The notes: generated by a model from the letters alone, not told the origin. Positions 1 to 47,469 are shown, counted from the first letter of the stretch. The stretch is 47,469 bases of DNA from a virus (IMGVR_UViG_2877274432_000010), one strand, 5' to 3'. Translations and numbers: made by a program.

Positions 1-436
1 ATGAAGCGTGAAGAAATCGCTGATCTGATGGCGTTTGTCGTCGTTGCAGAGGAGCGTAGCTTCACTCGCGCAGCAGCCCGCCTGAGCATGGTGCAGTCAG
101 CTTTAAGCCAGATAGTGCGCCGTATAGAAGAACGATTGGGATTGCGGCTTCTGACGCGAACCACGCGCAGCGTTGTACCCACTGAAGCGGGCGAGCATCT
201 TTTGTCTGTTCTTGGCCCTATATTGCATGACATAGATTCTGCCCTGACATCCCTGAGCGATCTGCAGAACCGCCCATCCGGGACAATACGTATTACTACT
301 GTAGAACATGCAGCAAAAACGATATTGTTACCAGCCATGCGCACATTCCTGAAATCGCATCCTGAAATTGATATTCAGCTTACCATTGATTATGGTTTGA
401 CCGATGTCGTTTCTGAACGTTTTGATGCAGGCGTCC
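1..436 (+). pseudogene. LysR-family transcriptional regulator, N-terminal fragment truncated by IS600
   Basis: N-terminal HTH-like sequence (ADLMAFVVVAEERSFTRAAARLSMVQSALSQ) typical of LysR regulators; reading frame runs into the IS600 terminal inverted repeat at 437 and the C-terminal substrate-binding half is absent. Confidence 0.7.
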
Positions 437-479
437 TGAGGTGTACTGGCAATAGCGGATACTACCATTTGTTCTTTTT

Positions 480-1298
480 TTAAGCAGCCATCTGATGATA
501 TTTTTCCCTGAAGGCTGCCGGGGAGATATTCCCCAGACGAGAGTGACGACGCTGACGATTGTAGAAAATCTCAATGTATTCCCGTATTACTGAGATGGCT
601 TCATCCCGGTTATTAAAACGATAGTGGCTCAGGCTCTCATTTTTCAGCGTTCCCCAGAAGCTTTCCATCGGAGCGTTGTCGTAACAGTTACCTTTACGCG
701 ACATTGATGTTTTCAGACCAGACTGCTCCTGTATGACCCGGTAATCGTATGCGCAGTACTGTGAACCTCGATCAGAGTGGTGGATTAGCCCGGCAGGTGG
801 GCGCTGGCTCCTGAGCGCCATAAACAGGGCTTTACCTGTCAGCTCTTTTGTCATGCGCTCTCCCATGGCGTAGCCGACAATTTCGCACGTATAAACATCT
901 TTGATGCCAGCGAGGTACAACCATCCCTCCTGTGTGGCAACATACGTCAGGTCCGCCACCCAGACCTGATTTGGTGCTGTAGGAGCGAACGTCTGGTTCA
1001 GCAGATTTGGCGCAACTGGCAGATTGTGGTTCGGGTTCGTAGTCGCTCTGAACTTGCGTTTCTGCTTACAGCGTAGCCTCAGCTCCTTACGAAGACGTGC
1101 CAGTCGGTCACGACCAACGATGATGCCATTCTCTGCCAGCTCCGTCTGGAGCCGCCGGGTTCCATATGTTTCGCGAGTGCGGATATGTGCCACCTTAATC
1201 TCCAGTTTTAGCCGCTCATCACTTTGTTTTCTGTCTGAGGGTTCATGCTGTACCCAGTTGTAATAACCGCTCCTGGATACACCAAATACCTGACACAT
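480..1298 (-). CDS. IS600 transposase OrfB (DDE integrase-like)
   Basis: 272-aa ORF, identical or near-identical in all IS600 copies in the window. Confidence 0.9.
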   Translation of the reverse strand: MCQVFGVSRSGYYNWVQHEPSDRKQSDERLKLEIKVAHIRTRETYGTRRLQTELAENGIIVGRDRLARLRKELRLRCKQKRKFRATTNPNHNLPVAPNLLNQTFAPTAPNQVWVADLTYVATQEGWLYLAGIKDVYTCEIVGYAMGERMTKELTGKALFMALRSQRPPAGLIHHSDRGSQYCAYDYRVIQEQSGLKTSMSRKGNCYDNAPMESFWGTLKNESLSHYRFNNRDEAISVIREYIEIFYNRQRRHSRLGNISPAAFREKYHQMAA

Positions 1299-1333
1299 CG
1301 CTTCAATGGGAAATTGTTGTCGCCATTGTTCGA

Positions 1334-1636
1334 TTAACGCGTATTTTTCAGCGACTCCTGTGCAAAATACGCTGTTGCTTTTTTTAATATATCTCGCTCA
1401 AGGCGAGCTTCATTTAACGCCTTACGCAGTTGCAGAATTTCAGATTCCAGTTCAGCCAGCGTGCGGGAACCAGGAGTACCGAGCCCTTTTCTGGCGGCGG
1501 TAACCCATTGTCCTAAAGTGCCTTCAGGAAGGGATAATCGGGAAGCGCCTTCACTGATTGAAAGTTGATTTTCAAGAACCGTTCTGACAGCTTCGGCTTT
1601 GAACTCTTTAGAGTAACGTTGGGTTTTTCTGCTCAT
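1334..1636 (-). CDS. IS600 OrfA (HTH DNA-binding)
   Basis: 100-aa [20 protein letters not shown]...; A-rich frameshift window at its 3' end. Confidence 0.9.
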   Translation of the reverse strand: MSRKTQRYSKEFKAEAVRTVLENQLSISEGASRLSLPEGTLGQWVTAARKGLGTPGSRTLAELESEILQLRKALNEARLERDILKKATAYFAQESLKNTR

Positions 1637-2163
1637 TATTAGCTCCTTCTGATGCCATTCTATTTCAGGAAGGAGTGTCCGTTAAACTCAGGCTACCTCA
1701 CTTATTCTAAGCAACCGGGTAGCATCATACGGGGCAATTATGGCCGCATTACCATACATGCAACTGTACATAGCTGATTACCTGGCTGACACCATGCATT
1801 TGTCAGCAGAGGAGCACGGCGCGTATTTGTTGCTGATGTTCAATTACTGGCAAACAGGAAAGCCAATACCCAAAAACAGGTTGGCAAAAATTGCCCGTCT
1901 GACTAACGAGCGATGGGTTGATGTTGAACCATCCTTGCGGGAGTTTTTTTGTGATAACGGCGACGAATGGATGCATCTTCGGATTGAGGAAGATCTGGCA
2001 TCTGTCAGAGAAAAATTAACCAAAAAATCAGCCGCAGGAAAAGCATCTGTTCAGGCCAGAAGAAGCAGAAAGGAAGCAGATGTTCAAACAAAACAAGAGA
2101 GAAATTTAACAGGTGTTCAAACAGATGTTGGAGTGGTGTTCGAACATGATGCTGGATTTGCCC

Positions 2164-44990: not shown

Positions 44991-45780
44991 GTTGGAGTCA
45001 TTACCGGTTGAATGTATTAATATGCAATGGTACGTGTCAGGGATTAAAAGATGAACGTAAATTTATTCAACGCATTAATTTTAAAGGGTTTTATTGTTTG
45101 TTGACGAAAACAGGAATCATGTTCGGTCTCTTTTTATCTGTTAAAAGCCAGAAGCATTTCCTTCGCTGACTTTATAGTCAACCATAACACACACTCTACT
45201 GTCTGAGTCCAGCGTTTTTTAACATTCTTGTTAAGATTATGTGATCTTTAGCGCGGGAGGAAAATATTGATGAAACAGCCTGCGCCCGTTTATCAGAGAA
45301 TTGCGGGTCATCAATGGCGACATATCTGGCTTTCTGGCGATATACACGGTTGTCTTGAGCAGTTGCGCCGCAAATTATGGCATTGTCGTTTTGATCCGTG
45401 GCGAGATTTACTTATCTCAGTGGGAGACGTTATCGATCGTGGGCCGCAAAGTTTACGTTGTCTGCAGTTACTGGAACAACATTGGGTTCGTGCGGTAAGA
45501 GGCAATCATGAACAGATGGCGATGGATGCGCTGGCATTCCAGCAGATGTCTTTGTGGTTGATGAATGGCGGCGACTGGTTTATTGCGCTGGCAGATAATC
45601 AACAGAAACAAGCGAAAACGGCGCTGGAAAAATGTCAGCATTTGCCCTTTATTCTTGAAGTACACAGTCGCACCGGCAAGCATGTTATTGCTCATGCCGA
45701 TTATCCAGATGATGTTTGAGGTAGCCTGAGTTTAACGGACACTCCTTCCTGAAATAGAATGGCATCAGAAGGAGCTAATA

Positions 45781-46083
45781 ATGAGCAGAAAAACCCAACG
45801 TTACTCTAAAGAGTTCAAAGCCGAAGCTGTCAGAACGGTTCTTGAAAATCAACTTTCGATCAGTGAAGGCGCTTCCCGATTATCTCTTCCTGAAGGCACT
45901 TTAGGACAATGGGTTACCGCCGCCAGAAAAGGGCTCGGTACTCCTGGTTCCCGCACGGTGGCTGAACTGGAATCTGAAATTCTGCAACTGCGTAAGGCGT
46001 TAAATGAAGCTCGCCTTGAGCGAGATATATTAAAAAAAGCAACAGCGTATTTTGCACAGGAGTCGCTGAAAAATACGCGTTAA
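45781..46083 (+). CDS. IS600 OrfA
   Basis: 100-aa ORF. Confidence 0.85.
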   Translation: MSRKTQRYSKEFKAEAVRTVLENQLSISEGASRLSLPEGTLGQWVTAARKGLGTPGSRTVAELESEILQLRKALNEARLERDILKKATAYFAQESLKNTR

Positions 46084-46118
46084 TCGAACAATGGCGACAA
46101 CAATTTCCCATTGAAGCG

Positions 46119-46937
46119 ATGTGTCAGGTATTTGGTGTATCCAGGAGCGGTTATTACAACTGGGTACAGCATGAACCCTCAGACAGAAAACAAAGTGATG
46201 AGCGGCTAAAACTGGAGATTAAGGTGGCACATATCCGCACTCGCGAAACATATGGAACCCGGCGGCTCCAGACGGAGCTGGCAGAGAATGGCATCATCGT
46301 TGGTCGTGACCGACTGGCACGTCTTCGTAAGGAGCTGAGGCTACGCTGTAAGCAGAAACGCAAGTTCAGAGCGACTACGAACCCGAACCACAATCTGCCA
46401 GTTGCGCCAAATCTGCTGAACCAGACGTTCGCTCCTACAGCACCAAATCAGGTCTGGGTGGCGGACCTGACGTATGTTGCCACACAGGAGGGATGGTTGT
46501 ACCTCGCTGGCATCAAAGATGTTTATACGTGCGAAATTGTCGGCTACGCCATGGGAGAGCGCATGACAAAAGAGCTGACAGGTAAAGCCCTGTTTATGGC
46601 GCTCAGGAGCCAGCGCCCACCTGCCGGGCTAATCCACTACTCTGATCGAGGTTCACAGTACTGCGCATACGATTACCGGGTCATACAGGAGCAGTCTGGT
46701 CTGAAAACATCAATGTCGCGTAAAGGTAACTGTTACGACAACGCTCCGATGGAAAGCTTCTGGGGAACGCTGAAAAATGAGAGCCTGAGCCACTATCGTT
46801 TTAATAACCGGGATGAAGCCATCTCAGTAATACGGGAATACATTGAGATTTTCTACAATCGTCAGCGTCGTCACTCTCGTCTGGGGAATATCTCCCCGGC
46901 AGCCTTCAGGGAAAAATATCATCAGATGGCTGCTTAA
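46119..46937 (+). CDS. IS600 OrfB
   Basis: 272-aa ORF (H to Y substitution in LIHYSDRG). Confidence 0.85.
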   Translation: MCQVFGVSRSGYYNWVQHEPSDRKQSDERLKLEIKVAHIRTRETYGTRRLQTELAENGIIVGRDRLARLRKELRLRCKQKRKFRATTNPNHNLPVAPNLLNQTFAPTAPNQVWVADLTYVATQEGWLYLAGIKDVYTCEIVGYAMGERMTKELTGKALFMALRSQRPPAGLIHYSDRGSQYCAYDYRVIQEQSGLKTSMSRKGNCYDNAPMESFWGTLKNESLSHYRFNNRDEAISVIREYIEIFYNRQRRHSRLGNISPAAFREKYHQMAA

Positions 46938-47193
46938 AAAAAGAACAAATGGTAGTGTCCGCTATTGCCAGTACACCTCAGTTTATGAATGGCAAAAGGA
47001 CGTTGATTTGCATCAGGTCTTGTGGAGCCGCTCGCGATTAGGTGAACGCCCAAAAGGGCAGGGAATTACAGGTGCTGATCATTTCTGGTTTGGTCATACA
47101 CCGTTGCGACATCGCGTGGATATTGGCAACCTGCATTATATTGATACCGGTGCTGTCTTTGGGGGCTAACTGACTCTTGTGCAACTGCAATAA

Positions 47194-47469
47194 TTAAAAA
47201 TCACCATACTCCTGTGCTGGTTGCCAGAAACCATCTATAAAATCCTCAATCGGAAAACAACTGCCATGGCGGATCCGTTGATCGCTCATAGAATAAAGAC
47301 ACTGCTGTTCCGTGTTGTAGACATCCACAACAATATCTTCACAACCGCCATCCAGGTAGCAAACAAAAAGTACCAGCGCGAACATTTCATCCCCGAAGTG
47401 TGGTGCCGTACCGTTAAGTTTAGGAGAGATTTTACAACGGGGGAATAACCAGGACAAATAACCCGCCAT
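47194..47469 (-). CDS. Hypothetical protein, 3' part (gene continues beyond window end)
   Basis: Open frame reaching the window edge; no motif recognised. Confidence 0.3.
   Translation of the reverse strand: MAGYLSWLFPRCKISPKLNGTAPHFGDEMFALVLFVCYLDGGCEDIVVDVYNTEQQCLYSMSDQRIRHGSCFPIEDFIDGFWQPAQEYGDF

Follow-up and report, generated by a model that had tools for sequence, protein, structure and literature searches.

The window analysed here, the whole 47,469-nucleotide stretch IMGVR_UViG_2877274432_000010 (coordinates 1-47469 throughout), is Shigella flexneri chromosomal DNA, with the 5′ half of pgrR at its left end, pphA-yebW at its right end and, in between, a composite of decayed lambdoid prophages in which sitABCD and ipaH3 are located. 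We mapped its insertion sequences (IS) by self-BLAST and by inspection of element ends, and the pattern is best explained by six clean insertions, one inversion through an IS600 element and several IS-linked deletions, an overall account to which we assign a probability of about 0.8. Every copy that carries a target-site duplication (TSD) is a simple insertion, while every copy without one is tied to missing or exchanged DNA. The inversion breakpoint lies in IS600 copy 1 (437-1700; copies are numbered by position), which is a true long-range recombination junction. Reference coordinates refer to the prophage of Escherichia coli VL40 (L001), to the enteroinvasive E. coli (EIEC) strain CFSAN029787 (L002), to the EIEC-like strain RMDEC465 (L003), to S. 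flexneri 2457T (AE014073, L010) and to CP178302 (L035).

IS600 copy 1 cuts pgrR (ycjZ), which encodes a LysR-family regulator. A first-pass annotation, made from the sequence alone, had described this LysR gene as truncated without a partner, and had proposed a synteny comparison with K-12 and other Shigella genomes as well as a search for the missing flanks. The partner of the pgrR junction was found outside the window, and the comparison with K-12 showed a switch in orientation. In 2457T, the region reads ...GCGTCC-IS600-TCCGTCTGG..., followed by the rest of pgrR-mppA-ynaI-uspE-fnr in K-12 order, and the IS600 in pgrR of this strain is a simple insertion with the TSD TCC. An exact search for the junction between the IS600 end and the remaining part of the gene ('pgrR) led to CP178302, which reads mppA<-'pgrR-GGA-IS600-GAT-xis-int-yebY-copD-yobA. 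The IS600 at 'pgrR is itself split there by an intron-free IS629 (TSD CAA), and the xis-int-yebY side represents the left end of a prophage integrated between pphA and yebY.

In the alignment of the IS600 copies, the 2457T copy agrees with that of CP178302 at positions 142 and 169 but with that of the window from 242 to 1241. The alleles 242C and 1241A were shared by the 2457T and window copies and were found in no other copy. This pattern of single-nucleotide polymorphisms (SNPs) indicates one reciprocal crossover between IS600 positions 169 and 242. The gene map agrees in kind: on the K-12 chromosome, pgrR (+) lies at 1.392 Mb and yebW (+)/pphA (-)/yebY (-) at 1.922-1.924 Mb, whereas the window has pgrR (+) at its left end and pphA (+)/yebW (-) at its right end. 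Given this opposite relative orientation of pgrR and pphA/yebW, a single inversion is the simplest account. Such an inversion, of ~0.53 Mb on the K-12 scale, would account for the junction at 437-1700, and the pgrR-yebY interval contains the replication terminus. The hybrid copy 1 would have obtained its right-end part from the IS600 inserted in pgrR with the TSD TCC, and its left-end part from an inverted IS600 located between the prophage gene ydaU and xis-int-yebY of the prophage at the pphA/yebY locus. A crossover at IS600 positions 169-242 would then have inverted all DNA between the pgrR copy and the ydaU/xis copy. Looking up the open reading frame (ORF) that fuses PgrR' to IS600 returned many complete S. 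flexneri chromosomes, and the arrangement of the window was present in 7 of 8 places among the matches listed.

Copy 1 is the only element of the window at which inversion by homologous recombination between IS copies was found, as judged from the unrearranged TSD TCC state in 2457T, the reciprocal flank in CP178302 and the hybrid SNPs. A large inversion placed at 39748-41115 had also been considered, as sit/intR occupies the Rac site and ipaH3 the pphA site in EIEC. It was dropped as a necessity because, in light of 2457T, CP178302 and the IS600 SNPs, one crossover in copy 1 explains both end orientations. A three-inversion model was superseded by the same crossover.

On insertion, IS1 duplicates 9 bp, IS2 5 bp and IS600 3 bp of the target; matches of these lengths are expected by chance at 4e-6 (9 bp), 1/1024 (5 bp) and 1/64 (3 bp). 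For each TSD-bearing copy, the empty site was reconstructed by removing the IS together with one TSD copy, and the joined flanks (300 + 300 bp) were compared with relatives. Gapless matches over 600/600 positions were obtained in the VL40 prophage for IS2 copy 1 (99.8% identity) and IS1-A (99.5%), and in RMDEC465 for IS1-D (99.0%) and for IS600 copy 5 in pphA (96.7%). The empty site of IS600 copy 2 matched E. coli CFS3292 and others (600/600, 99.7%) inside an ORF6N antirepressor gene, and the joined flanks of IS2 copy 2 were recovered as a single 599-bp piece (89%) between kilR and a Rha gene in E. coli prophages. All six TSD-bearing copies are simple insertions. The six duplications quoted in the first-pass annotation were exact, and the empty sites independently confirm its simple insertions. 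One of them was misplaced, as GTT does not flank the fourth IS600 but the fifth (45717-46980); accordingly, the listing of an "IS600 copy 5" among the TSD-less junctions is wrong if this element was meant. Under an alternative numbering, with the truncated copy last, the copy at 33741 would be absent from both lists. The lack of a TSD at IS600 copy 1, IS1-B and IS1-C was upheld when the flanks were re-examined, and no crosswise match among the orphan flanks was found inside the window. There are two routes by which a copy loses its matching flanks, namely recombination with a second element of its kind and removal of adjoining DNA by the element itself or by a neighbour, and both have been taken here.

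Three of the TSD-less elements, IS1-C, IS629 and IS600 copy 4, have both flanks collinear with the VL40, RMDEC465 and CFSAN029787 prophages at 96-99.7% identity. The left flank of IS1-C ends at L001 10752 and the right flank starts at L001 11175, both within the same 1236-bp intR (99.6-99.7% identity), so that 422 bp (L001 10753-11174) are missing. Pfam placed Phage_integrase at 26993-27646 and Arm-DNA-bind_2 at 28396-28572, across the element. Both intR halves flank IS1-C and only 422 bp were lost, so the event was a local deletion rather than a long-range breakpoint; the integrase cut at 27632, previously regarded as lacking a partner, has its other half just across the IS. At IS629, the sequence breaks off at L001 11520 and resumes at ~11882, with ~360 bp missing including a DUF1187 gene; at IS600 copy 4 it breaks off at L001 13299 and resumes at 13804, with 504 bp (13300-13803) of the gam-recE region missing. 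From their sequence, IS629 and IS600 copy 4 look like local IS-adjacent deletions as well. The mechanism we infer for each of the three is IS-adjacent deletion, which would have removed 422, ~360 and 504 bp, respectively, from one prophage arm. The idea that TSD-less copies are deletion or inversion junctions was thus sound in principle, yet its specific claims hold unevenly: of the three gene examples, that of LysR is right, that of the integrase is wrong and that of Rha is plausible, and the gaps at IS1-C and IS600 copy 4 amount to only 422 and 504 bp.

Two observations concern the surroundings of IS600 copy 4. A 12-bp inverted IS600 tip lies between the element and its right flank, implying that an IS600 of opposite orientation was there first, that its tip served as the target of another IS600, and that the first element was deleted afterwards. 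VL40 carries an independent IS600 in recE (L001 15001-16264), near but not at the site used in the window, with unmatched flanks (CTG/CAT) and 9 bp of window sequence missing.

A far larger loss is suggested by the composite of IS1-B and IS600 copy 3. The left flank of IS1-B is codon 52 of a Rha-family gene that starts at 18252 in the integrase island and is cut at 18407 (Pfam Phage_pRha, profile positions 1-29 of 91), while its right flank is IS600 position 316. The right flank of IS600 copy 3 corresponds to L003 from 8373 onwards, within a tail-fibre coding sequence, for which the upstream flank reads ...TTTATTTGTGGG GTA. The two outer flanks keep the order and orientation of the intact prophage, and in intact EIEC relatives the tRNA cluster is separated from this tail-fibre gene by lysis, head and tail genes. 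The composite thus probably marks a deletion of prophage late genes, ~20 kb or more, together with the rest of the island. An IS1-mediated deletion of the lysis, head and tail genes would join the Rha gene to the tail-fibre gene. All sampled S. flexneri genomes share this junction. The partner half of the Rha gene was not found in the window, and none is expected under an internal deletion. The truncation noted earlier at 18407 is borne out by Pfam, and the flanks would fit an internal prophage deletion. A partner junction of TTTATTTGTGGGGTA with the IS600 left end TGAGGTAGCC, if present in the source genome, would mean an inversion or translocation. In a similar manner, an IS911 scrap and further IS fragments (40590-41114) join ydfC to the tail-fibre gene of the ipaH3 prophage and probably mark an internal deletion of that prophage, whose size we likewise infer.

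Several observations weigh against the account given so far. The ydaU-IS600-xis-int-yebY junction, which the single-inversion model predicts in 2457T, was not retrieved by look-ups with window proteins, nor was the pgrR'-IS600-ydaU junction of the window recovered from the CP178302 genome. None of the S. flexneri genomes sampled showed an intermediate state at the IS1-B junction, such as a complete IS600 or an uncut Rha gene. Moreover, the left arms (AAA ATPase, gam, recE) are identical between the two prophages of VL40, and across IS600 copy 4 the identity to all references falls, from left to right, from 99.65% to ~96.3%. The last two points would suit a long-range origin of IS600 copy 4 and/or IS629 as crossovers between an intR/sit phage at the Rac site and an ipaH3 phage at the pphA/yebY site, all the more as intR/xisR are of the Rac-site type and the ydfC region and ipaH3 of the pphA-site type. 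Still, the structure is common to all sampled S. flexneri genomes, none of which showed a reciprocal product, and the order of the window is a circular permutation, at att, of one intact EIEC sit prophage, for which no IS crossover is needed. We therefore consider such crossovers unlikely, noting that identity to VL40 and RMDEC465 has no power to discriminate local deletion from crossover at IS600 copy 4, the two prophage arms being identical.

Even less probable is the sweeping version put forward in the first-pass annotation, in which every TSD-less copy is a long-range junction, leaving the LysR, integrase and Rha genes without partners. It holds for IS600 copy 1 and pgrR, and the Rha gene indeed has no partner in the window; however, the other half of the integrase gene adjoins IS1-C with only 422 bp lost, the gap at IS600 33741 is only 504 bp, and IS600 45717 shows the GTT duplication and a perfect empty site. 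For IS1-C and IS600 45717, the alignments rule out a long-range reading. A trivial origin of the mismatched flanks, by point-mutation decay of the TSD or as an assembly artefact at repeated IS, has hardly any chance of being correct. A 3-bp duplication is easily lost through one mutation, but hundreds of bp to many kb are missing or exchanged relative to the references at each TSD-less copy, and the 9-bp flanks have no matching register, which decay does not explain. Furthermore, dozens of complete S. flexneri genomes, each assembled independently, contain identical junctions, and such recurrence shows that they are not assembly errors.

The combination of simple insertions, one IS600 inversion and IS-linked deletions is overlaid by newer events in single strains at copies that are clean in the window, and IS rearrangement is thus still active. 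In CP182555 (L037), 12491-19175 was lost by recombination of IS600 copies 2 and 3, leaving a full IS600 with the flanks CAG/GTA. The right end of IS600 copy 2 is joined to 37328 in CP026810, CP026765 is without 1-2378, and different flanks occur at the left of IS600 copy 1 in CP054892 and at IS1-A in CP054913.

The prophage modules themselves are permuted. Their order in the window (ydaU...tRNAs...tail fibre-sitDCBA-att-intR-xis-recE...Rha, then tail fibre-ipaH3) is that of the intact CFSAN029787 sit prophage (ttcA-intR...tRNAs...tail-sitDCBA-uspF, at the Rac site) after circular permutation, joined at att (26892-26934). E. coli H22 has the same sitA-att-intR joint (26771-26934 in the window), with an integrase remnant, at its Rac site, so that the joint was not made by an IS. 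It points to a tandem lysogen, or to a circular phage genome that recombined with a prophage already in place. In a more extended scenario, which we regard as conceivable though doubtful, the sit iron/manganese transporter and ipaH3 would have come together in one composite element when a sit phage, as a circular genome or in a tandem lysogen, recombined into the related prophage at the ipaH3 locus, and IS deletions would then have locked both virulence loci in. The integrase function would have been lost to IS1-C, the recombination arm to IS629 and IS600, and all morphogenesis genes to deletion.

Table 1. Features of the window, by position.
Feature	Coordinates	Strand	Remarks
pgrR (ycjZ, LysR family), 5′ part	1-436	+	cut by IS600; 100% coverage, 99.3% identity to E. 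coli pgrR; Pfam HTH_1 and partial LysR_substrate
IS600 copy 1	437-1700	-	1264 bp; no TSD, flanks TCC / CTT
Lambdoid prophage middle region	1701-13519	+	ydaU/ydaV replication genes, DUF1367, DUF1133, ORF6N antirepressor; collinear with L001 20566-29844
IS2 copy 1	2153-3483	-	TSD GATGC (2148-2152 / 3484-3488), in ydaU
IS1-A	8634-9401	-	TSD CTGTTAGTA
IS600 copy 2	11244-12490	+	1247 bp, 17-bp internal deletion; TSD CAG
tRNA cluster	13209-13519		four tRNAs
Small integrase island	13476-18407	+	inserted in phage tRNA-Gly
IS911 and 5′-truncated IS911	15988-17236, 17237-17882	+	pair bounded by TCT / TCT
IS1-B	18408-19175	+	no TSD, flanks CTTAACGCG / AAAAAAAGC
IS600 copy 3	19176-20124	+	3′ 949 bp only; right end in prophage tail-fibre gene
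sit prophage right end	20125-26934	+	tail-fibre genes, sitDCBA, att region; 98.8% identity to CFSAN029787 (L002 19995-26741)
sitDCBA	23112-26561	-
Rac-type left arm	26892-39743		intR, xis, AAA ATPase, gam, recE, kilR, Rha
Rac-type intR and xis	26892-28746	-	intR split by IS1-C into catalytic part (26993-27632) and Arm-binding part (28401-28572); 99.6-99.7% identity to VL40 intR/xisR
IS1-C	27633-28400	+	no TSD, flanks AACGGGTCA / CACCGGAAC
IS629 with group II intron	28747-32322	-	no TSD, flanks GGC / TTC
IS600 copy 4	33741-35004	+	no TSD, flanks CTC / CAG
IS600 left-end scrap, inverted	35005-35016	-	12 bp (CAGGCTACCTCA), read directly in the sequence
IS2 copy 2	37340-38670	-	TSD GCAGC (37335-37339 / 38671-38675), between kilR and Rha gene
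ydfC region of ipaH3 prophage	39860-40588
IS911 left-end scrap	40590-40650	+	61 bp; more IS fragments up to 41114
Tail-fibre/DUF4376 genes, ipaH3, pphA, yebW	41115-47469	+	collinear with RMDEC465 (L003); orientation opposite to K-12
ipaH3	42036-43751	-
IS1-D	44238-45005	+	TSD GGTTGAATG
IS600 copy 5	45717-46980	+	TSD GTT, in pphA

The identity of the elements was established from their ends, their genes and database labels. Four 768-bp IS1 copies (99.7-100% identity) share the ends GGTAATG...CATTACC and encode InsA/InsB (Pfam Zn_ribbon_InsA and DDE_Tnp_IS1), and RefSeq labels their matches 'IS1 family transposase'. The 9-bp TSD is present at IS1-A and IS1-D and missing at IS1-B and IS1-C, where DNA was lost. 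The two 1331-bp IS2 copies (IS3 family; 99.5% identity) have 5-bp TSDs and two overlapping transposase ORFs with the Pfam domains HTH_Tnp_1 and rve (RefSeq 'IS3-like element IS2 family transposase'). IS600, also of the IS3 family, measures 1264 bp and is represented by five copies of 98-99.8% identity with the ends TGAGGTAGCC...CACCTCA and OrfA/OrfB with a frameshift (RefSeq 'IS3-like element IS600 family transposase'); its 3-bp TSDs are CAG and GTT in the window and TCC at the pgrR copy of 2457T. The IS629 unit matched records over its full length at 99.7%, with the annotations 'IS3-like element IS629 family transposase' and 'ltrA group II intron reverse transcriptase/maturase'. The elements named in the first-pass annotation form an incomplete inventory, as IS629 with its intron, the IS911 pair, the scraps at 40590-41114 and the 12-bp IS600 scrap were missed.

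Some of these elements show further variation. The group II intron in IS629 spans 29271-31531 (2261 bp) with a reverse transcriptase/maturase at 29352-30875 (Pfam RVT_1, GIIM). S. flexneri genomes vary at this site, some with and others without the intron, and the IS629-intron unit is widespread in E. coli (1743 records at a coverage of at least 80%). The IS911 pair is arranged head-to-tail, a complete copy being followed by a 646-bp 5′-truncated one, with one TCT duplication around both. Most sampled S. flexneri genomes have a single IS911 here (integrase-to-Rha distance of 3972 vs 4618 bp), indicating that the extra 646-bp piece is a strain-level polymorphism. IS600 copy 2 lacks 17 bp (IS600 positions 319-335) in the A-rich frameshift region, giving a fused ORF of 379 instead of 385 aa; an undeleted copy occurs at the same site in some other strains. 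The truncated IS600 at 19176 begins, at position 316, 3 bp upstream of this 17-bp deletion.

The integrase island sits in the 3′ end of a prophage-borne tRNA-Gly(TCC) and encodes a 534-aa tyrosine integrase (13634-15238), followed by three tandem repeats of ~121 bp (15251-15619) and the Rha-family gene. Each repeat contains a perfect 23-nt T7 class III promoter, TAATACGACTCACTATAGGGAGA (15327-15349, 15448-15470 and 15568-15590; 0 expected by chance). E. coli relatives of the island are found at the chromosomal glyU tRNA and have one promoter unit. It may be a satellite, or an island with a defence role, that is coupled to the RNA polymerase of a T7-like phage; a literature search on such a T7-promoter island gave nothing relevant. 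Elsewhere in the window, a 712-bp direct repeat (22170-22881 and 41115-41826, 98% identity) spans a tail-fibre gene end and a DUF4376 gene. Its two copies lie upstream of sitDCBA and of ipaH3, respectively, and might serve as substrate for a deletion of 19 kb between these virulence loci.

The analysis provides a base-level account of an S. flexneri region with two virulence-associated loci, sitABCD and ipaH3, and corrects the initial list of junctions. It separates passive IS copies from the one that carries a polymorphism for an inversion of about half a megabase, by which 2457T differs from most other sequenced strains. The presence or absence of a TSD sorts untouched from rearranged IS copies well, but says nothing on the size or distance of the rearrangement, and behind half of the orphan copies in the window lie deletions of less than a kilobase. 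The known picture of IS-driven genome decay in Shigella is unchanged; the added value lies in the resolution of one breakpoint to the base and in the corrected list.

IS1-promoted adjacent deletions, arising by intramolecular transposition or by recombination of two nearby IS1 copies, are classical in E. coli genetics. As expected for such events, IS1-B and IS1-C are complete, have lost the 9-bp duplication and miss DNA on one side; intramolecular transposition and IS1 x IS1 recombination give the same product and are not separable by sequence. On a broader scale, our finding is an instance of already known IS-driven rearrangement in Shigella. IS-mediated inversions, translocations and deletions of S. 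flexneri, including an IS600-mediated inversion, as well as terC inversions in all sequenced Shigella, have been described (PMC1550401), and so has the expansion of IS1, IS2, IS4, IS600 and IS911 with linked gene loss (PMC7373316). Compared with the published analyses of Sf301, 2457T and Sf8401, the IS types (IS1, IS2, IS600, IS911, IS629) and the kind of event are the same. Specific to this window is the base-level breakpoint between pgrR and the prophage next to yebY, with the crossover at IS600 positions 169-242, a detail that was not found in the published S. flexneri comparisons examined (which did not cover the 2457T genome paper). With the EIEC sit prophage (CFSAN029787) and the ipaH3 prophage at pphA/yebY (RMDEC465/VL40), the window shares the modules intR-xis-AAA-gam-recE-Rha, DUF1367-DUF1133-tRNAs, tail fibre-sitDCBA and tail fibre-ipaH3-pphA at 89-99.7% identity. 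It differs from those prophages in the permuted order of these modules, in the loss of lysis, head and tail genes, and in the presence of 11 full or nearly full IS copies and several scraps.

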